DNA of 64,000 nucleotides, taken from IMG/VR virus record IMGVR_UViG_3300023184_008808, positions 1 through 64,000 of that record; one strand, written 5' to 3'. A program made the translations under genes and the position numbers. The notes under the pieces are model-generated. The model was not told the origin of the DNA. It ran no database searches and saw only the letters and a list, made by a program, of their open reading frames with translations. Below, piece by piece: positions 955-55,301 of this stretch (the first letter of the stretch is position 1; every line of letters starts with the position of its first letter). The stretch comes from a virus.

Positions 955-1305
955 GGGGCCGAACTAGTTTCGATTCGAAGGCTAGAGGTTCATGTGGCAT
1001 GCAGAGGTTCATCGAGAGGCCTCTTTAAAACTCGATGCGTCAATTAAATGGCGAATCTGTTCTTGCTATGGCTGCTTAATTAAAGCTGCCTTTGGACTGC
1101 GGGGGCGATGTGAGTAGCGCTCAAAAGTCCATTGTTAAATCTCACTAGTCTTTTGTTGCCAACTAACAATTGATGAAAATTAAGTTGGAAAAGCCTGAAG
1201 GGGATTTGCCTGATGTTCCTTGATGGTGTTTTTAAACAACAGGACAAGCATGTAGAGGCAGAGCTAAAGGATTCGAAGACTGCGGGGCGGTACCGCACGG
1301 CTCCA
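955..1305 (+). ncRNA. ssrA: tmRNA, one-piece; tag (A)GESVLAMAA at 1050-1079
   Basis: 5' GGGGCCG pairs with 3' CGGCTCC-A with a G3:U pair; T-arm TGCGG/CCGCA; tag ORF after TTAAAT ends in AA-stop; ~350 nt; CCA not encoded. Confidence 0.93.
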
Positions 1306-1371
1306 TTATTATTATTTGCCAATATTCTTTTATTGTTTTATCATGGTATAAAGACTTTTGGGTCATCTTCC

Positions 1372-4189: not shown

Positions 4190-6937
4190 ATGAGCAAGGA
4201 AAGATTTGAAAGCCTGTGTCTTCAGGCCCTGAAATCTCGTGGATTAGAACAAAATCTTCGTTACATCAAGCGATTAAAATGGGAAGTTGAGGAAATTCTT
4301 GGCAAAGAAAAGCAAGATTATTTTCTTGATCTTTATGACCGTAAAATTCGCTATCCTTATAACCAAAACAATCTTCTTGTGTGTTGGTTGCTTGGAATTG
4401 TTCCAGATTGTGATGTTGATAAAGAACCCAACAATGTTTTTACAGGCGACCTTCCTGATATTGATGTTGATTACATTCCTATCGTTCGTGATTACTTAAA
4501 AAATGTTTGGGCTCCAAAAACATTTGGCGAAGAATATGTCTGCAACATTGGCAATTACACTACCTTCGGCTTGAAAAATGCACTCATTGATATGGCTCGT
4601 GTAATTGATCAATCTCGTGATGAAGCTCAAGAAATCACTAAAAATCTTGACGCAAAAGATGATGAAGGCAAGCCTTTAAATTGGGATTCAGCAATTAAAC
4701 TATATCCTGAATTAAAAAAATACGCAGATGAACATCCTGAAGTAGTTGAAGCCGCCAAGATGATGGTTAATAGAAATCGTGGTATGGGAGTTCATGCTGG
4801 AGGTTTGATCATATCGAGTATACCTTTGCATGATCTTGTTCCACTTGTTAAGCGTAAAGACAGTCCTCAAGCAAGTTCTTGGGTCGAAGGTTTAAATGGT
4901 CAAGATTTACAACCAGTGGGTTTGGTAAAGTTTGATTTGCTTGTTATTTCAAATCTTTTACAAATTGCTCGTTGTTGTCAAATTATTAAAGAGCGTCATG
5001 GTTTGGAAGGTATTTGTAATATTGCAGGCGGTCCTGATTGGAGTGATGTATCTAAATGGCGAAATGATTCTAAAGCTTTAGAGATGGCAAATACAGGTGA
5101 TTTGAAATGTGTTTTCCAGTTTGATTCAGAGGGTATGCGTAGTTTGGTTCGTTCAGGTGGCGTTGATCGTTTTGAAGATTTGGTGGCTTATTCTGCTTTG
5201 TTTCGACCCGGATGTTTAAAGATGGGGATGGATAAGCGTTATATTGAACGCAAAAAAAATAGAGAATCATTTGAGCTTCATCCTTTGATGTACCCAATAT
5301 TAGATAAGACATATGGAGTTATGGTTTATCAAGAACAGATCATGCGGATTTTGCATGTTGTAGGCGATATCCCTTTAAAAGATTGCGAAGCTGTTCGTAA
5401 GGCAATTAGCAAGAAAAAGATTGAATCTTTTATCAAGTATAAAGAAATGTTTATTGTTAATGGACAGAAAAATTTAAGTGTTGACCAGAAAGCTGTTGAA
5501 GATTTGTGGGCTCAGGTCGAAGCTTTTTCTGAATATGGTTTTAATTTGAGTCATGCTGTCGCTTATACATATATTTCTATGCGGTTAATATGGCTTAAAG
5601 CTCATTATCCCCATGAGTTTTATGCTTCTATGCTCAGCTGCGAAACCTTGAGCGAAAAAATTAAAGACTACAAAATGGAAGCTAGGGTTCATGGTGTAGA
5701 CATGCATCGTCTAGATGTTAACAAGTCCAAAGTCAATTTTGATTTGCAAGATAAAATGATTTATTTTGGATTTAGCAATGTGCGAGGGATAGGGGAATCT
5801 CCAGCAAAGAAAATTGTAGCTAATCAGCCTTATTCTTCTTTTGAAGATTTTCTTATTCGTTGCGGAACAGATTCTTCCATGTTAAAGCCAATTATTGGTC
5901 TAAGATGTTTTCGAGATAGTGATCCAATTACACTTTGGAAATTTGCCGAACATTTTAAAGATTGTCTGAAAAAGGGAGAAGCAAAGCGAAAAAGATTTTA
6001 TGATTCTGTTTCAAGATACGAAGATGATTTTAAAGAACTTGTTCCTGATGAAACTGTGACTTTAGCCGATTTAAGTGGAGATATGCCTTTTGATGATTCT
6101 TATTGGAAGGACAAATACAACAAAGAAGAATTTATAGAAACAACGAAAGAGGTTGAATGTGAAGAGGGAGAAGGAAAGCCTCGAATCGTTGCCAAAGAAA
6201 TTGATACTGGTGATGATAATGTTGTTATTGAACAGGAAAAGACTGTTTATTTTAAGAATATTTTAGTAGTTAAGCAATGGAATCGTTGGAAAGCTCTTAG
6301 GCAATTGTGGATGCGTAGAAAGCGTACATTAGGAAGTGGGAATGATACTGCTCCAATCAATCTTCCTAAGTTGATTGATTTTAATCCTAATGAATATTCA
6401 ATTCCAAATGATTTGTTAAAACTATTTCGTGATCCCGTTGCTTGCGAACGAGAATATTATGGTTTTGCTTGGATTCATGAATTAGAACGAAGTCCAGATT
6501 ATCGAGGCAATCTTACATTTGACGCATTGAAAAATGACATTCATAATACTGTTGCCCCTGTAGAGGTTACTGTAAAGAAATGTTCCGTAGTAACAAGTAA
6601 AAAAGGAACAACTTATCGTCAGGTTCTGGCCGAAGATGTAACAGGACAGCAAAATAGAATCAATATTTGGGATGACGATTGGCAGCGTTGGCAACAAGAA
6701 TTTAAGGCTGATAACTTACTTAGATTGCGTCTACAGCCTCCCTCAGGTGGTTTCAATACTTTCACTTTAGAAAGCAATCAAAAAGGAAAGTATCGTGGAA
6801 TCAAAAGATATCCTGATAAAGCTCATGATCCTAGAGTATGGGTGATGCAGATGGGCAAAAAGGAAGAGGATAAATATCTTACCGATGAAGAGGCCCTCGA
6901 ACAATTTGATGATTGCATAATGGAAAATTCCAAATGA
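4190..6937 (+). CDS. dnaE: DNA polymerase III alpha subunit lacking the PHP domain
   Basis: PDIDVDY, HAGG, KFDLL, VFQFDS, YQEQIM, FNLSHAVAY, HhH VRGIG, OB fold. Confidence 0.93.
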   Translation: MSKERFESLCLQALKSRGLEQNLRYIKRLKWEVEEILGKEKQDYFLDLYDRKIRYPYNQNNLLVCWLLGIVPDCDVDKEPNNVFTGDLPDIDVDYIPIVRDYLKNVWAPKTFGEEYVCNIGNYTTFGLKNALIDMARVIDQSRDEAQEITKNLDAKDDEGKPLNWDSAIKLYPELKKYADEHPEVVEAAKMMVNRNRGMGVHAGGLIISSIPLHDLVPLVKRKDSPQASSWVEGLNGQDLQPVGLVKFDLLVISNLLQIARCCQIIKERHGLEGICNIAGGPDWSDVSKWRNDSKALEMANTGDLKCVFQFDSEGMRSLVRSGGVDRFEDLVAYSALFRPGCLKMGMDKRYIERKKNRESFELHPLMYPILDKTYGVMVYQEQIMRILHVVGDIPLKDCEAVRKAISKKKIESFIKYKEMFIVNGQKNLSVDQKAVEDLWAQVEAFSEYGFNLSHAVAYTYISMRLIWLKAHYPHEFYASMLSCETLSEKIKDYKMEARVHGVDMHRLDVNKSKVNFDLQDKMIYFGFSNVRGIGESPAKKIVANQPYSSFEDFLIRCGTDSSMLKPIIGLRCFRDSDPITLWKFAEHFKDCLKKGEAKRKRFYDSVSRYEDDFKELVPDETVTLADLSGDMPFDDSYWKDKYNKEEFIETTKEVECEEGEGKPRIVAKEIDTGDDNVVIEQEKTVYFKNILVVKQWNRWKALRQLWMRRKRTLGSGNDTAPINLPKLIDFNPNEYSIPNDLLKLFRDPVACEREYYGFAWIHELERSPDYRGNLTFDALKNDIHNTVAPVEVTVKKCSVVTSKKGTTYRQVLAEDVTGQQNRINIWDDDWQRWQQEFKADNLLRLRLQPPSGGFNTFTLESNQKGKYRGIKRYPDKAHDPRVWVMQMGKKEEDKYLTDEEALEQFDDCIMENSK

Positions 6938-33099: not shown

Positions 33100-33753
33100 A
33101 TGCGACTCTATGAAGAATATTTGCAGCGACATGGCATCGTTGATGTTCCATTGGTGCATCACTCTTCTTATTCCAGTATTTTTTTAAATTTACCTCATAG
33201 CTTAGATTTGCAAAATCTTTCTATATGGGAATCTATTCACAATAACACTAATGTTCGTGCTGGATTTTTAGAAGTTGTTTGGAGTAAATCAGAAAATCGT
33301 CCGGGGCGTTATAATTTAGGATTTTATTATATCGGTCATGATTCTTATTATAATGGAAACATAAGATTTAAATATCATAAGGTAGTTGAATTGCTATGGG
33401 ACGAATATGAGTTTTACATTTTCAATCTTGTAAACTCATTGAACTCTTCTCATTTGTTTCATAGTGAAAGCAAGGCAATATTAGCTGGTTGGGAGTTGTT
33501 TGTGCATGGTTGTGATTACTTTTTCTCTCAACAAAGCGGAGATTTAAAATATCTTTTGTTTCACAGCTTAGATAAAGAAAATGATGAATCCTATAGATTG
33601 GGTTACATCAATGAAGTATTGCGTAGAATTTATAATTCTCAACCTTTGTTAGTAAGATATTGGGAAGAAGAAATTTTGAATCGTATACGCAATCAGTCTG
33701 AATGGTTGATAAAATTGATTGAATTAAAATGCAAAAAAAATACGCACCAGTAA
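33100..33753 (+). CDS. hypothetical protein
   Basis: ORF. Confidence 0.65.
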   Translation: MRLYEEYLQRHGIVDVPLVHHSSYSSIFLNLPHSLDLQNLSIWESIHNNTNVRAGFLEVVWSKSENRPGRYNLGFYYIGHDSYYNGNIRFKYHKVVELLWDEYEFYIFNLVNSLNSSHLFHSESKAILAGWELFVHGCDYFFSQQSGDLKYLLFHSLDKENDESYRLGYINEVLRRIYNSQPLLVRYWEEEILNRIRNQSEWLIKLIELKCKKNTHQ

Positions 33754-34547
33754 GAGTTAAAAATCCCTCAGCTAAGAATGTCTTAATTCGATTGTTGCAA
33801 GGACAACAACTTAATCTTGTATTTGATAAACCTAATTTTTTAGAATATAAAATTGATATTGCAGGATCTTTTCTTGCTGTGGATGATATTATTCAAATAA
33901 ATTCTGGTTGGGTTGCAAATATAACTCAAAAAAATCAAGATGTTAATTTGGAAAGCGCTTTATTTTTGGGCGAAATAAGTTTATACAATAATGACAATAT
34001 AAAAAGTTCTAGCTTGTGTGTTGTAACCAATGCATCGAACAATGATGTTCTGCGAATAGTTAATCCTACAGACTGCAACATTAGTGTTGAGCCTCATCAA
34101 GTTCTTGAAGTTGTGTTTAAAGGAAAAAGTTTGACAGAGCGTTGGGTGCCATTTCCAAGTGGCAAAGAAATGGTTCTTGAACAAATTCAGCATTCATTTA
34201 ACAAGTCTTGCAACATTAAAAATTTTGATCTAATATTTGAAGAAACTCATCGATTCAGATTTAATGCTGCAAGTATTGAATATTTGTCTGAAAAACCAGT
34301 AGGAAAATATGATGGCGGCAATTTATTTTTTACAGGCTTTGGTCGAAATTGTACGCTTGGTATTACATGTTCTTGGAAAGGAAAAGGACAACTTTATAAT
34401 GCACTTTTGTTGCCAAAACATATTGGATCAACATCTCCTTTTAAAGGATGGGGTCGCATTAAAAAGTGTTTGCATTCTGAAGTTACTTTGTGCAAAATAG
34501 ATTGTCCATCTATAGAAACAGGTTGTGTTATATTAACATCAGGATAA
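33729..34547 (+). CDS. hypothetical protein
   Basis: ORF. Confidence 0.65.
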   Translation: MQKKYAPVRVKNPSAKNVLIRLLQGQQLNLVFDKPNFLEYKIDIAGSFLAVDDIIQINSGWVANITQKNQDVNLESALFLGEISLYNNDNIKSSSLCVVTNASNNDVLRIVNPTDCNISVEPHQVLEVVFKGKSLTERWVPFPSGKEMVLEQIQHSFNKSCNIKNFDLIFEETHRFRFNAASIEYLSEKPVGKYDGGNLFFTGFGRNCTLGITCSWKGKGQLYNALLLPKHIGSTSPFKGWGRIKKCLHSEVTLCKIDCPSIETGCVILTSG

Positions 34548-49278: not shown

Positions 49279-49393
49279 GTTTCTAGTTGATCTTGATTTT
49301 GTTTTATTTTTAGATTAGGGTTTGCTATCTTTTGGTTTGCTTGACCAAAATTGCTTTTTTCATTTTAAATCATCAAGCGAAAGGATTTGTAAG

Positions 49394-49591
49394 ATGTTGC
49401 TTTTAAAGCGCAGAATCGATCAAAGCATTATGGTGGGGGATATGAAAGTTACCGTTATAAAGATAACTCAGAACGAAGTCATGTTGGGAATTGATGGTGA
49501 TAGACGAGTAATTGTTCATCGTAAAGAAATTTACGATAAAATTCAAAAGGAAAACAATGTCAAAACCGAGAAGTTGCCCGCACTGTCATGA
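49394..49591 (+). CDS. csrA: carbon storage regulator CsrA (copy 1)
   Basis: MLLLKRRIDQSIMVG...V.LGI...VHRKEIY. Confidence 0.88.
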   Translation: MLLLKRRIDQSIMVGDMKVTVIKITQNEVMLGIDGDRRVIVHRKEIYDKIQKENNVKTEKLPALS

Positions 49592-49910
49592 AATTTTACC
49601 AATCAGCAATGGCTTTACTTTTGACCATACATTGAACCTAGTTTGTTCCTCTTGTAGCAAAGTTGTTTATCAAGCTCAACAGGTGTCAATCTCAAGGAAT
49701 GAGGGTTTAAATAGTGATTTCAATAATAACGCAGATATACAACTATCTGAACAAGGAGCTTTTTGCAGGGAGTTTGTCCTCACCTCAAATTCAATATCGA
49801 ATGAATCGCAAATATGCGATGCGGTGGGAGAGCGAGACGAACATCTTGCACATAGGGGCCGATTTCATCGATTTAAATCTTATAAACACTGGAATCTTCT
49901 TAATCCATGA
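49557..49910 (+). CDS. zinc-ribbon protein
   Basis: CPHC...CSSC; SD AAGGA; 3' part overlaps the next gene. Confidence 0.55.
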   Translation: MSKPRSCPHCHEILPISNGFTFDHTLNLVCSSCSKVVYQAQQVSISRNEGLNSDFNNNADIQLSEQGAFCREFVLTSNSISNESQICDAVGERDEHLAHRGRFHRFKSYKHWNLLNP

Positions 49911-50346
49911 AATGGTTCATATCTTAAATAAAAATAAGAACATTGTTGATGTTTCTGCCAACCAATATCACAAATTGGAATTTGCTTCTGTTGCAGCAAA
50001 CCTTGGATTCTATGTTTTGCGACACAAAACTCAAGGCTGGAGCATCACTCAAACAAATATACCTTCTTCTTTAAAAGAGGATCATATTGATCCTGTTCCA
50101 GAAAAATTAAATAAACTTATCTTTGTTCTTAAAAATATTCCAGTTAGTGTAAAGAATTTTGAAAAACAAATGAAGAATTTTATTGATTTAAGGAATCAAT
50201 CTAAGCCAATAAAGTCTTTCTTTTTAAAATACCAATGTCAATGTCCTCCGCCATATAACAGCATTCGATCTGGCCGTCGCCCAGATAGTCCAAATGCTCC
50301 TGAAGTTTTTTGTAAAAAATGTCAATCTGACTTTGTTTGTTCTTAG
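49714..50346 (+). CDS. SprT-like metalloprotease
   Basis: YNYLNKELF, HEMVH, YHK..F, CQC...CKKC. Confidence 0.8.
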   Translation: MISIITQIYNYLNKELFAGSLSSPQIQYRMNRKYAMRWESETNILHIGADFIDLNLINTGIFLIHEMVHILNKNKNIVDVSANQYHKLEFASVAANLGFYVLRHKTQGWSITQTNIPSSLKEDHIDPVPEKLNKLIFVLKNIPVSVKNFEKQMKNFIDLRNQSKPIKSFFLKYQCQCPPPYNSIRSGRRPDSPNAPEVFCKKCQSDFVCS

Positions 50347-50699
50347 TGAATGCTAGCTTCTGGATCAAATCGTTTTATGATTTTTATGTAAATGATATAC
50401 AAAAGAATAGTAGTAATGGTAAATTCAAGGAAACTGCCAATGAATTTACCAATTTCAAAGTCCATACCATTAGTCGGGCTAAAAATTAACAGTCTCCAAT
50501 CGCCGCCAGTTGCTGTTACTGTAAATTTTATGATTGGCATGATGATAGATTCAGAGATTGCCGTCACAAATTTTTGCATAGAATTTGCCATGATTAGTGC
50601 AAGAGCCATGGCAAACAAGTTTTTACCAAAGGCAAATTTCTTGTAATCGTTAAATTCTTGCTGAATTTTCTCGGTGTTTACAAACTTTTTTTCTTCCAT
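50343..50699 (-). CDS. mscL: large-conductance mechanosensitive channel-like protein
   Basis: KKFAFGKNLFAMALALIM, IIMPII, IGKFIGS. Confidence 0.8.
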   Translation of the reverse strand: MEEKKFVNTEKIQQEFNDYKKFAFGKNLFAMALALIMANSMQKFVTAISESIIMPIIKFTVTATGGDWRLLIFSPTNGMDFEIGKFIGSFLEFTITTILLYIIYIKIIKRFDPEASIH

Positions 50700-50720
50700 G
50701 TTTTATTTACGACAGACAGC

Positions 50721-50880
50721 TTTACAAAAAATAACTTCTTAGGTAAGATCACTTCATGTAATCGTCCAGAGCGAGGTGATGGAGCCTCGCTGTCTGACAC
50801 GCCGCCTGTTTAGGCGTCAAATTTACCTTTGGAGTGTTTCCAAGGGAGTTTCGTGTGTCCATTCGTTAAGGATAACAAGT
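50721..50880 (+). promoter_or_regulatory. sigma70-like promoter and structured GGA-rich 5' leader
   Basis: TTTACA-17-TAAGAT; three hairpins, the first with an ATGGA loop. Confidence 0.65.
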
Positions 50881-52128
50881 ATGATGAAGAATATTGATTC
50901 GCAAGATTTCCCAATGCAGCGTTTACCTCAAGGATGTAAACATTTATATGGAAATCTTTTCATGGTTCCTTTTAGTGCCATCAAAACCCCTGATGCAAAA
51001 GAATCATCAGAAGGTTCATATAAATTTAAAAATCCTCGAATGTTGGTAGAACGGGGACAAGCAGATTTGCTTGATAAAAAGCTTTGTAAAGATTTACGGG
51101 ATAGTATCAAACATCGAACTTTGCTTAATCCACTCGTTTGTCGTTGGGTTGAAGATGGCGAAAAGCTTGTTCCAATGATCCTTGGTGGAGATCGTCGTTA
51201 TCGTTCCCTTGATTATCTTATTCGCAAAAAAGAAGAAGTTACTGATCCACGAGGTGTTTCCGTTGAAAATGGAACATGGACTTATCAGAAAATTACAGCT
51301 GATCAAGCTTATGAATATGTTCTGTGCCAAGTTTTTGCAGTCAGTGATGATCTTGAAGCTCTTGCCCTTTCTTGGGCAGAGAACAAGACTCGTATTAACT
51401 TGACAGATGGTCATGAAATTGCAGAAGTCATTAAATTGCGTGAAGCTAATGCTACTGATGGTCAAATTCTTGACATTTTACAACAAGACCAAAAATGGCT
51501 TGCAGAAACTGATCGTTTGATCGATGGTCTTGATTCAAATAGTCTTGCCGATCTTTTGGAAGGTCGAATTGATCGTGGTTCTGCTGAGGAACTCGTCAAA
51601 ATTGAAGATGTCGAAATGCGTAATCAAGTTCGAACTATGGCTACCGAGGCTGCTGCCGAAACTTGTGAACGCAAAATTGAGCGAATTAAGAAAAAAATGG
51701 ATAAGTCTATGGAAGCCTTAGAATTGGCAGAAGGCTCTGTAGCCTTTGCTTCTAGTGAAGAAGACTTAAATGATGCAAATAACGACCTTTCTCTTGCAAA
51801 GGCAGATGTTCGTAAATTAACTGACAAAGCTAAAGAAGTTCGTCCTGTAGCAACAGCTAAGCATATTAGAAGTGCCGCAGAACAAATGGGTGGCAGTACT
51901 CCTCGAAAAAGGGCTAAAACTGAATCTGCTTCTAAATTAAAAGGTTTAAGTATTAAAAAAGGTGTTGAATATATCAACGGTTTAATTCGAAATAATGGTT
52001 CTTGTCATAGTGGGACTTTTAAAGCTCATATTGATGCTTTGCGTTTAGTTAACAAATTGTTAACTGAAAATGTTTTGACAGGAAATGATGATTGGGAAAG
52101 CACTTTGCGTAATCACTACGGAAAGTAA
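50881..52128 (+). CDS. ParB N-terminal domain protein with coiled coil
   Basis: NPR, LRDSIK..LLNPL, GDRRYR, AENKTR. Confidence 0.8.
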   Translation: MMKNIDSQDFPMQRLPQGCKHLYGNLFMVPFSAIKTPDAKESSEGSYKFKNPRMLVERGQADLLDKKLCKDLRDSIKHRTLLNPLVCRWVEDGEKLVPMILGGDRRYRSLDYLIRKKEEVTDPRGVSVENGTWTYQKITADQAYEYVLCQVFAVSDDLEALALSWAENKTRINLTDGHEIAEVIKLREANATDGQILDILQQDQKWLAETDRLIDGLDSNSLADLLEGRIDRGSAEELVKIEDVEMRNQVRTMATEAAAETCERKIERIKKKMDKSMEALELAEGSVAFASSEEDLNDANNDLSLAKADVRKLTDKAKEVRPVATAKHIRSAAEQMGGSTPRKRAKTESASKLKGLSIKKGVEYINGLIRNNGSCHSGTFKAHIDALRLVNKLLTENVLTGNDDWESTLRNHYGK

Positions 52129-52148
52129 TTAAGTTTTTTAAAAAATAT

Positions 52149-52187
52149 AAGATAAAGCTCGGTTTTAATATCGAGCTTTATCTTTTT
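52149..52187 (+). terminator. intrinsic terminator
   Basis: AAGATAAAGCTCG/CGAGCTTTATCTT. Confidence 0.8.
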
Positions 52188-52211
52188 GTTTTTTAAGGCA
52201 TACATAATTTA

Positions 52212-52523
52212 ATGATCCAAGTTTGTCCGCATTGCGGCTACCAACTTCAGCATATCTTAAAAGATGGGCTCACAAATTGCTCCCATTGCAATCAGGTTTT
52301 TGATTCTAGCGATTTAAATCAATTATTATCAGCAGCTTGGCATATTCGTCGTCAAAATTGGTCTCTTGAGCAATTAAAATGGCATTTAAAAATAGACGAT
52401 GCTCTAGCTATACTTGTTTATACATTTGTTTCTGATCATGGCTATACTCACGAAGAGTTTTTAAATTTATTGAAAAAACTCGGAGTAGCACATAAGTCAT
52501 ATATCAAATATAACAACGAATAA
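52212..52523 (+). CDS. zinc-ribbon protein
   Basis: CPHC, CSHC; TACATA 5 nt upstream. Confidence 0.7.
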   Translation: MIQVCPHCGYQLQHILKDGLTNCSHCNQVFDSSDLNQLLSAAWHIRRQNWSLEQLKWHLKIDDALAILVYTFVSDHGYTHEEFLNLLKKLGVAHKSYIKYNNE

Positions 52524-52571
52524 AAGAAACCCCTATAAAAGGGGTTATATTATCAATATAAATTTAAAAAA

Positions 52572-52793
52572 TCATGCTGTTTCTGCTGAAATTTGCCCAA
52601 TAGGAGCACGAGGGTCAATCTCGATGTTATTTCCTTCAAGTTCTGAACGCAACACAGTGATCTTTTTATCAGCTTCAATGCCTATTCTGACCTTGTTGCG
52701 ATTATCAATACGGACCACGGTGATTTTGATATCTTCCATGCCGGGGCCTTTAAGAATAATCGTTTCATCCTTTTTTCGACTTAGTACGAGCAT
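52572..52793 (-). CDS. csrA: carbon storage regulator CsrA (copy 2)
   Basis: MLVLSRKKDETI...KVRIGIEA...VLRSEL. Confidence 0.92.
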   Translation of the reverse strand: MLVLSRKKDETIILKGPGMEDIKITVVRIDNRNKVRIGIEADKKITVLRSELEGNNIEIDPRAPIGQISAETA

Positions 52794-53021
52794 TTTACTT
52801 CCTTTCGTGCCTGATTCCTTGAGCCAAGCTGTACTCACTATCTAAGGAGTTAGTTATCGATTTTTTTTATTGATATGGACAGTATTTTTATTTTTTGCTA
52901 TACAATCAAAGTAAATAGGCGTTTAATAATATTGATGACTCATCGGGAGAGTTATCAAATGTGTTGTTAGTATTTGTCCGTGACTAACAGCATTTCAGGT
53001 ACGGACGGGAATAGGTGCAAT

Positions 53022-53483
53022 ATGTCTCAGTGGCAAAATCAGTTGAATGCGTTGAAGATTGAGATCGAAACTAAGTCAAAGCAATTGGCTCTTATTGAGC
53101 AGTTAATTGCTTTGGAAGCTAAACATACTCATGGTGAGGATGTAAAGGATCTTCCTGTTTTTGGTGCTACTGCTAATGATAGTGACGAAGATAATGAGAA
53201 GACCAGCAAGCGACGAGTTGCTAATCTTTCAAAGCTTCGCCGAGAACTTTCTGATAATGAAAAGAATATGAAGCTTCCTTCACTTCTTATTATGCTTGGT
53301 CAGCAAAACGCTGGTCGTTCTGTCACTTATAAAGAGCTTGCCGAAATGGTGCAAGAATCTGGATATTCAACCGAGTCGAAGAATTTTAGCAACATGGTTT
53401 ATCAGAGCTTACAAAAGCTTGTTAATCGTGGTTTTTATACAAAGAATGATGAAACTCGTGAATATCAATATGTTGGAAAATAA
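53022..53483 (+). CDS. coiled-coil plus winged-helix DNA-binding protein
   Basis: TYKELAEMV..GY.T.SKNF.NMVYQSL.KL..RG. Confidence 0.7.
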   Translation: MSQWQNQLNALKIEIETKSKQLALIEQLIALEAKHTHGEDVKDLPVFGATANDSDEDNEKTSKRRVANLSKLRRELSDNEKNMKLPSLLIMLGQQNAGRSVTYKELAEMVQESGYSTESKNFSNMVYQSLQKLVNRGFYTKNDETREYQYVGK

Positions 53484-54029: not shown

Positions 54030-55301
54030 ATGAGTAAAAAGAAAAGCCCAGTCTGTGATTACTGTGGCAAACCCAGTTCTCAGGTTGGCCTATTAGTAGA
54101 AAGTCCTGTCTCTGATAAAGAACAAAATGGACGACCTGCTGGTGGTAAGGTTTATATTTGTGGCAGTTGTGTTGATATATGCCAAACTATGGTTGTTCAA
54201 AAGATGAAATCTCCTTCTTTAACATTTATTTCTAATCATATTCCTTCTCCCAAGCAAATTGTTGCTTATCTTGATAAGTCTATCATTGGACAAGATAGTG
54301 CTAAAAAAGCTTTGGCTGTAGCCATTACAAATCATTACAAAAGACTTCAAGATAATAATTTAGATCGGGATGATGATCTTTTTGCTGATGTTACTCTTGA
54401 AAAAAGCAATATTCTTCTCATCGGTCCAACTGGTTGTGGCAAAACATCTCTTGCTCGCACATTAGCACACATATTAAAAGTTCCATTTGCAATTGGTGAT
54501 GCAACCACATTGACAGAGGCGGGTTATGTTGGCGAAGATGTAGAAAATCTTGTTTTAAAATTATTACGAGAGGCAGATTTTAAAGTTGAATTGGCTCAAA
54601 CTGGAATTATTTTTTTAGATGAGTTAGACAAAATTGGTAAAACTTCACAAAATGTTTCGATTACTAGAGATGTAAGCGGTGAAGGAGTTCAACAAGCTTT
54701 GTTGAAAATGCTTGAAGGCACAACTTGTAATGTTCCACCGGGAGGGGGCAGGAAACATCCCGAACAACAATACATTCAAATTGATACAACAAACATTTTA
54801 TTTATTTGTGGCGGTGCTTTTGTTGGTCTCGATGAGATTATTCGTCGTCGTATTGGCAAAGCCACCATGGGTTTTAATCCCTCTGCAAAAAAAGATGAAA
54901 ACGAATGGATTTTGGAATATGTAACCGAGGACGATCTTATTGAGTATGGTCTTATTCCTGAAATTATTGGTCGTCTTCCTGTTATTACTCCTTTGAAGGG
55001 TCTTGATGAAGAAGCGATGATTAAGATATTGACTGAACCAAAAGATGCTTTAGTCAAACAATATCAGAAAATGTGTCATAAAGATAATGTTAAACTAATG
55101 TTTACAAACGAGGCATTGTCTTTGATTGCTAAAAAGGCTATAGATAAAGGCACTGGAGCTCGTGGTCTCAGAAGCGTCATGGAAAGTTTCATGATAGAAA
55201 TTATGTACCATTTATCAGATCATGATGGAGAAAGCGTTGTAGTAACAAAAGAAGTCGTTGAAGGTGGAACAGCTATTTTTACAAAAAATAGAGCAGCTTA
55301 A
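54030..55301 (+). CDS. clpX: ATP-dependent Clp protease ATPase ClpX
   Basis: C4 zinc domain, [28 protein letters not shown] loop, GARGLR. Confidence 0.97.

Follow-up and report, generated by a model that had tools for sequence, protein, structure and literature searches.

Candidate CsrA-type sites conserved on the mRNAs of two csrA genes, and possibly of a ParB-like gene, in a huge freshwater phage

Does a CsrA protein that is encoded by a phage act on the mRNAs of the phage itself? This question is raised by a 64,000-nucleotide stretch of viral DNA (the window), which is the first 64 kb of the linear IMG/VR virus record IMGVR_UViG_3300023184_008808 (90,159 bp, 34.8% GC), and which carries two csrA genes, csrA-1 and csrA-2, on either side of a ParB-like gene. 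Judged from its sequence, the source is a huge phage of freshwater lakes: contigs from freshwater and lake metagenomes of several studies match the record at >99% identity, and the CheckV completeness of the 90,159-bp record (∼21%) implies a genome of roughly 400 kb. A sequence-only reading of the window had proposed a local CsrA regulon in which the ParB-like gene, csrA-2 and an adjacent winged-helix gene (wHTH) are controlled through GGA motifs in their leaders. Our analysis singles out a different set of sites, and negative auto- or cross-regulation of both csrA genes is the likeliest function of those that are conserved. We give this reading about even confidence, with binding and repression both inferred.

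Both csrA genes are genuine, as had been claimed. Their products score well above the Pfam PF02599 cut-off of 27 bits (Table 1), csrA-1 covering positions 1-53 and csrA-2 positions 1-47 of the 53 positions of the family, and both match PHROG 9500 (‘CsrA-like regulator’). A scan of the whole 90-kb record returned exactly these two copies, and a third csrA was searched for there and not found. The two proteins share 37% identity. The residues with which CsrA binds RNA are reportedly, from work of Mercante et al. in 2006, L2, L4, R6, R7, V40, V42, R44 and I47 (E. coli numbering). In an alignment to the CsrA/RsmA chains of the PDB, csrA-1 retains L2, L4, R6, R7, V40, V42, H43, R44 and I47, and csrA-2 retains L2, L4, R6, V42 and R44, with the conservative replacements R7K, V40I and I47L plus H43L. 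Both proteins had RsmE (PDB 2jpp) as one of their sequence matches in the PDB. It is most likely, from these likenesses, that the products of csrA-1 and csrA-2 are functional GGA-binding translational repressors.

What would such a repressor recognize? CsrA binds GGA, preferably in the loops of short hairpins, and the ligands obtained by in vitro selection (SELEX) mostly have ≤4 pairs and the core ACARGGAUGU; a CsrA dimer bridges sites 10-63 nt apart, and CsrA bound on the Shine-Dalgarno (SD) sequence excludes the ribosome (PMC7652899). The csrA-1 start region, which the sequence-only reading had missed, carries the best conserved candidate CsrA-type hairpin of the set. In the RNAfold structure an outer stem, CAUC/GAUG, takes in the AUG, an inner stem is formed by GCGAA/UUUGU, and the loop, AGGA, is the SD itself. 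Here, as throughout, gene starts and transcription starts were predicted from sequence, and orthologous leaders that were ≥80% identical were removed before counting. The alignment of csrA-1 starts was ungapped and the stems lie at differing offsets in it, so a shuffle test was used. Of the 13 non-redundant csrA-1 leaders, 10 have the SD GGA in a loop closed by a stem of 4-7 bp, against 2.75±1.44 in shuffles, none of which reached 10 in 400 trials. All ten stems differ in sequence, and the AUG is also paired in several of the folds, the CAUC/GAUG of the window among them. A GGA at the SD would by itself be uninformative, because GGA is the normal SD core of this phage; it is present at −17 to −6 in 13/13 csrA-1 and 26/26 csrA-2 leaders.

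The csrA-2 leader is of another kind. The two AAGGA sites described in it are present on the minus strand, one with its GGA at 52818-52816 and the other, the SD, with its GGA at 52802-52800, and the first of them does lie in a weak hairpin, GCUUGG-CUCAAGGAA-UCAGGC. The leader as a whole is unstructured, folding no better than dinucleotide shuffles (z +0.40). Across the phage clade an AAAGGA-type SD was found in 26/26 csrA-2 leaders, and in 15 of these the nearest upstream GGA lies 10-17 nt from the SD GGA. Shuffled leaders gave 2.85±1.58, and in none of 1000 trials was 15 reached; the same spacing was seen in 4/55 leaders of eight control gene groups and in 1/33 of this genome's own leaders. 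Upstream, the motif that recurs is CA(A/U)GGA, in agreement with the CARGGA of the SELEX core, and the GGA count between −60 and −15 is 26, with 13.1±3.1 expected. These counts support, at the level of sequence, a conserved two-site architecture with one site on the SD, which is that expected for CsrA self-repression.

A third candidate is the ParB-like gene, whose start at 50881 agrees with the alignment consensus of its homologues (95, of 40-64% identity, from contigs as long as 600 kb, many with a precomputed PF02195 assignment). Its SD lies in the loop of a mini-hairpin (Table 1). Of 21 orthologous ParB leaders, 10 have an SD-in-loop hairpin, with about six stem types among them; shuffles gave 3.51±1.66 and reached 10 in 0 of 400 trials. 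The gene thus stands as a plausible target through this mini-hairpin, but not through the longer hairpin at 50771-50790 that had been put forward, which is not conserved. An excess of GGA in the ParB leaders (20 against 10.3) was discounted, because upstream coding sequence (GYEF codons), uncertain starts and a tandem (ACGG)n repeat in two related contigs (L008/L009) contribute to it. In the latter the ParB leader (∼5930-5990) contains the stretch TTGACGGACGGACGGACGCATAGACGGATCG, with 7 GGA in ∼100 nt of a 34% GC genome. Within the ParB-like coding region of the window, at codons 14-20, we observed a further hairpin, GTTTAC-CTCAAGGAT-GTAAAC (50921-50941), whose loop differs very little from CUCAAGGAA, that of the csrA-2 leader. 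It may be a CsrA site early in the coding sequence, or the resemblance may be a coincidence arising from the conserved PQGCKH codons.

We favour auto- or cross-regulation because the sites of csrA-1 and csrA-2 and, less strongly, of the ParB-like gene match the geometries that CsrA is known to bind, and hairpins of 8-10 bp do not. In each csrA mRNA the ribosome-binding site would coincide with a CsrA-type site. For csrA-1 this would be the SD GGA, which a short hairpin presents in its loop while its outer stem pairs the AUG; for csrA-2 it would be a pair of single-stranded A(N)GGA sites, spaced by 16 nt and including the SD, which lie within the range that one dimer could bridge. When free CsrA is high the sites would be bound and the 30S subunit blocked, leading to negative auto- or cross-regulation. 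The ParB-like gene, with its SD hairpin loop kept in about half of the relatives, may be a third local target. Which CsrA, phage or host, acts on which site can be inferred only.

Several observations weigh against regulation of the csrA genes by such sites. CAAGGA is an ordinary SD context of many genes in this genome, GGA being the SD core, and SD-in-loop mini-hairpins occur at chance genome-wide (18/74, against 15.7±3.4). The second GGA is absent within 30 nt upstream in 7/26 csrA-2 leaders, and four of the ParB leaders have a common CAUC/GGUG stem. The orthologous leaders are related by descent, so that the counts overstate their independence. No sponge RNA of the CsrB/RsmZ type was found in the 90 kb, where the 150-nt windows with ≥6 GGA are mostly or wholly coding, and no FliW (PF02623) was found in the 90-kb record, which is ∼21% complete.

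Some of these observations would be expected if the phage CsrAs target host mRNAs only, for takeover or anti-defence, and the GGA motifs and hairpins of the phage are ordinary SD, translation-tuning or mRNA-stabilising structures. The CAAGGA context and the background frequency of looped GGA and of SD-loop hairpins speak for this explanation; the published proposals on phage CsrA also concern manipulation of the host (PMC8450108), and csrA-1 and csrA-2 both resemble CsrA types of the host phylum. It leaves unexplained, however, the second A(N)GGA at bridging distance in the csrA-2 leaders and the SD-loop hairpins with differing stems at csrA-1 and ParB, the more so as the module neighbours show neither: the leaders of wHTH, ClpX, mscL and p53519 were at background in the GGA-excess, spacing and SD-hairpin tests. 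We consider action on host mRNAs alone to be rather doubtful, though a serious alternative to auto- or cross-regulation.

The sequence-only reading had placed its emphasis on two longer hairpins. Both exist as described, GCGAGG-TGATGGAG-CCTCGC in the ParB-like leader (50771-50790) and TTGATGACTC-ATCGGGA-GAGTTATCAA in the wHTH leader (52932-52958), as do the further GGA of the ParB-like leader (50832, 50845 and the AAGGA SD at 50868-50872) and the pairing of TGTCCGT (52975-52981) with ACGGACG (53001-53007) in the wHTH leader. Both hairpins are more stable than dinucleotide shuffles (z in Table 1), and so are the whole ParB and wHTH leaders (z −2.76 and −3.04). Sense folds were more stable than antisense folds (−29.6 vs −18.5 and −43.9 vs −36.3 kcal/mol) because of G-U pairs, and this strand-specific stability favours RNA-level structure over DNA palindromes. 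The structures are therefore real. The GGA in their loops is another matter, since within this genome it is indistinguishable from background. GGA was looped in 6 of 80 intergenic hairpins (stem ≥6 bp, 90 kb), and the control triplets gave the same picture, with 5 each for TCC, AGG and GGT and 6 each for GAA and AAG; the chance of a GGA in a loop of 6-7 nt is about 4-5%. A looped-GGA frequency equal to background had been named beforehand as grounds for abandoning the proposal, and this is what the genome-wide count returned. A phage-wide looped-GGA regulon is not supported.

Could the two hairpins nevertheless be high-affinity CsrA anchors (50770-50791 and 52932-52958), from which a dimer bridges to the SD in a three-gene local regulon? 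Their significant, strand-specific stability and their loops, which hold AUGGA and GGGA, would suit this role, and there is a precedent in glgC, where a hairpin site is combined with an SD site (PMC7652899). The two leaders are also among the few with three upstream GGA: upstream of the SD zone, the density of GGA across 81 leaders is 0.70 per 100 nt, and only 6 of the 81, two of them around the tmRNA (transfer-messenger RNA) gene, have as many as the ParB and wHTH leaders (3 each). Stems of 8-10 bp are, however, unlike typical CsrA ligands (PMC7652899), and neither the hairpins nor their loop motifs are kept in orthologous leaders. The 50770-50791 hairpin had no counterpart in the orthologous ParB leaders, which vary in length and content; the relatives fetched for this comparison are no closer than 57% identity, those at 58-64% lying outside it. 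In relatives, a conserved promoter is followed directly by hairpins in the wHTH leaders too, but these have other sequences and loops that lack GGA, and the GGA loop at 52932-52958 is not conserved; nor do wHTH leaders show any excess of GGA (7 observed, 9.7 expected). The looped-GGA counts given above bear on the anchors too, as does the tandem-repeat origin of the GGA-dense ParB leader in L008/L009. Finally, one natural variant lacks a ParB-leader GGA: in a lake contig of depth 3.5, 50847 A>G turns GGGA into GGGG and the third GGA is lost. (Contigs from four lake metagenomes differ from this phage at six single-nucleotide positions, one of them in a leader, which is too few for covariation.) We regard the anchor version as distinctly improbable.

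The same inverted repeats could act as DNA operators, the 10-7-10 repeat at 52932-52958 being bound by the winged-helix protein and the repeats before the ParB-like gene being parS-like. The csrA-2/wHTH intergenic region (52840-52935) contains back-to-back promoters that are conserved in relatives. The promoter facing wHTH is TTTACA-17-TAATAT in the relatives and reads TATACA-17-TTTAAT in the window; that facing csrA-2 has a TTAATAT-like −10, TAGATA in the window, about 46-51 nt before the ATG. From the relatives' TTTACA-17-TAATAT promoter, the 52932-52958 hairpin would lie at the 5′ end of wHTH mRNA or close to it, and the repeat would thus coincide with the predicted transcription start, where the inverted repeats of relatives differ in sequence. 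The AlphaFold model of the wHTH protein, which fell in no Pfam or PHROG family, is a coiled coil plus winged helix: a helix at 2-36 is followed by an H-H-E-H-H-E-E C-terminal domain, with a confidence score (pLDDT) ≥81. These points would accommodate an operator. On the other side, the G-T pairs of the stems are mismatches in duplex DNA and the sense RNA folds are clearly more stable; the spacer ranges from 7 to 16 nt among relatives; and the winged-helix assignment itself comes from weak structural matches, the fold search having returned from the PDB only weak hits to winged-helix domains (E ≥0.013). DNA operators are in our view very unlikely to account for the repeats.

To place the two paralogues, they were compared with cellular CsrA proteins. 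A genome scan seeded with the csrA-2 pattern gave 523 cellular relatives, and the 80 retained of these came nearly all from metagenome-assembled genomes (MAGs) of Planctomycetota; the pattern MLVLSRKKD was used to draw this set, which is hence biased, a further point to be set against our reading. Among 79 of the cellular proteins, 66 have the motif VHRxE(V/I) and 9 have V(L/I)RxEL. Against VHR-type CsrA of cellular Planctomycetaceae the csrA-1 orthologues reach 78% identity (the window's own copy, 52%), and csrA-2 shares 55-66% identity with a V(L/I)RxEL-type CsrA from a Planctomycetales contig of 2.7 Mb. With the reservation that the set is seed-biased, the comparison agrees with a Planctomycetota host, which we consider probable, and with a phage that copied both host CsrA types. 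Because the paralogues mirror these two cellular types, host mRNAs are probably the main clients of the phage CsrAs. A second GGA at 10-17 nt was also seen in 19/74 cellular Planctomycetota csrA leaders, a raw count from GC-rich genomes that was not used as evidence.

The csrA-2 lineage has traits of its own: GPGM is inserted, VLRSEL replaces VHRxEIY, and the protein ends in a conserved tail, RAPIGQISAETA. Its relatives number 712 at E ≤1e-5, and its 52-aa core is nearly invariant across 29 aligned relatives; at syntenic phage loci csrA-2 is 71-88% identical while the ParB-like protein is only 40-57% identical. One could imagine from this a two-CsrA circuit private to the clade, in which csrA-2 and the host-like csrA-1 would read sites of different build, one of them two linear sites and the other an SD hairpin, and would cross-regulate each other as well as the ParB-like gene, timing replication or partition in the course of infection independently of the host Csr; we think this unlikely. 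The tail (52575-52610, minus strand) is conserved over much of the phage lineage, and suggests, by analogy with the contact between FliW and the CsrA C-terminus in Bacillus, a protein partner. That it might be an ssrA-like degron for the adjacent ClpX was considered and rejected: the phage tmRNA tag, which in the Rfam alignment appears to read GESVLAMAA with a canonical ClpX-type ending, is unlike RAPIGQISAETA. L017 (RXKI01000134.1, 13.7 kb), which is binned in a Neisseriaceae MAG and is probably a mis-binned phage contig, encodes a csrA-2 with 92% identity to the phage lineage.

Table 1. Positions of the genes and RNA features discussed (numbering of the window)
Feature	Position	Strand	Details
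tmRNA	955-1308		Rfam alignment
csrA-1 translation-initiation hairpin	49371-49396	+	RNAfold minimum free energy structure
csrA-1	49394-49591	+	65 aa; canonical VHRxEIY type; Pfam PF02599 55.8 bits; PHROG 9500
Promoter-like TTTACA-17-TAAGAT	50721-50749	+	consensus scan; leader of ∼125 nt if used; transcription start predicted
Hairpin 1, ParB-like leader	50770-50791	+	RNAfold: loop GAUGGA on a stem of 8 bp that includes one G-U pair; −15.2 kcal/mol; z −3.06
Hairpin 3, ParB-like leader	50826-50846	+	CCUUUGGA-GUGUU-UCCAAGGG; GGA within or next to the stem rather than the loop
SD mini-hairpin, ParB-like gene	50865-50876	+	GUUA-AGGA-UAAC
ParB-like gene	50881-52128	+	415 aa; ParB_N match 18.4 bits, weak, below cut-off
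csrA-2	52572-52793	-	73 aa; Pfam PF02599 55.9 bits; PHROG 9500
Two candidate CsrA-type sites, csrA-2 leader	52800-52821	-	CAAGGA (52821-52816) and SD AAAGGA; GGA starts 16 nt apart
10-bp hairpin, wHTH leader	52932-52958	+	one G-U pair; loop AUCGGGA; −11.3 kcal/mol; z −3.70; antisense −7.7
Second stem, wHTH leader	52975-53010	+	TGTCCGT/ACGGACG, then GGGA
Coiled-coil and winged-helix-like protein (wHTH)	53022-53483	+	153 aa
Phage clpX	54030-55301		

The genes of this locus belong to a module with the conserved order csrA-1, Zn-ribbon, SprT-like, mscL (minus strand), ParB-like, Zn-ribbon, csrA-2 (minus strand), winged-helix, p53519 and ClpX, and its synteny is kept in at least 14 huge-phage contigs of up to 381 kb. 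Alignment-based scans gave 14 IMG/VR loci at first and more afterwards; alignment queries were needed, as the ParB-like and wHTH proteins, each used singly as a query against viral contigs, returned no matches. A blastn search against GenBank phages found no match for this DNA, and the only Rfam families matched in the 64-kb window were tmRNA and tRNA (tRNA-Thr). The Zn-ribbon open reading frame (ORF) at 49557-49910 begins within the 3′ end of csrA-1, with an overlap of 35 nt and an AAGGA SD of its own, and its open frame extends 197 nt into the SprT-like (HExxH) gene (49714-50346). Conservation in relatives is limited to its first ∼40 residues, and their SprT gene lies in a different frame; the true Zn-ribbon product is probably a protein of ∼50 aa. 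Elsewhere in the window, the hairpin TTGTTG-CAAGGA-CAACAA (33792-33809) has a textbook CsrA-type hexaloop; it lies ∼80 nt before a GTG at 33879, possibly inside a longer ORF (33729-34547).

How does the arrangement proposed here compare with characterized CsrA systems? In E. coli, translation of CsrA is repressed by CsrA itself, the SD being among the sites used (Yakhnin et al. 2011, reviewed in PMC7652899). The phage csrA-2 leader has two sites where the E. coli leader has four, and csrA-1 would rely on a single SD hairpin; a sponge of the CsrB/C type was not found in the 90 kb of the phage, and the likeness covers repression at translation, as distinct from sigma-S-type transcriptional feedback. 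Likenesses are also seen with the RsmE-hcnA complex and the SELEX ligands (2jpp; PMC7652899): GCGAA-AGGA-UUUGU of csrA-1 and GUUA-AGGA-UAAC of the ParB-like gene both have a short stem with the SD GGA in the loop, and the phage sites, with 4-5 bp in the stem and 4-8 nt in the loop, match typical CsrA ligands (PMC7652899). Unlike those ligands, the phage loops are often of 4-5 nt rather than hexaloops and lack the flanking ACA...GU consensus, and, unlike in RsmE-hcnA, the outer stem of csrA-1 also pairs the start codon. The FliW-CsrA switch of Bacillus and Campylobacter offers a third comparison. FliW of B. subtilis contacts an extended CsrA C-terminus (PMC7652899), and csrA-2 likewise has a conserved C-terminal extension, in a phage whose 90 kb lack FliW.

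CsrA/RsmA homologues of phages and plasmids, including some on IMG/VR contigs, have been described by Campa et al. 2021 (PMC8450108), who proposed that they manipulate the host post-transcriptionally, and knock-down of the CsrA gp28 of phage PTXU04 led to smaller plaques, in a study whose authors state that the role of CsrA in phages had previously not been tested (Adler et al. 2025, PMC11879866). The genes described here resemble these in being small CsrA genes on phage genomes. They differ in that two divergent paralogues stand in one conserved huge-phage module, and in that the csrA-2 lineage combines a nearly invariant core with a loop insertion and a C-terminal tail of its own. Our results bear on whether phage-borne CsrA acts on phage mRNAs, and offer three short conserved candidate RNA targets: the SD hairpins of csrA-1 and ParB and the two-site leader of csrA-2. 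Paralogues that resemble two Planctomycetota CsrA types also lend themselves to asking how a host's global regulator is copied and rewired by a virus, and they add to the thin evidence on Planctomycetota viruses; in other respects the locus is a further example of known phenomena. Phage CsrA genes and CsrA self-repression are both already known. What this locus adds, at the level of sequence comparison, is: i) quantitative clade-wide support for CsrA-type sites on phage csrA and ParB mRNAs, together with evidence against the two conspicuous hairpins; and ii) the documentation of such conserved sites on the phage's own mRNAs, an aspect that lies outside the studies of Campa et al. and Adler et al. 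(PMC8450108, PMC11879866).

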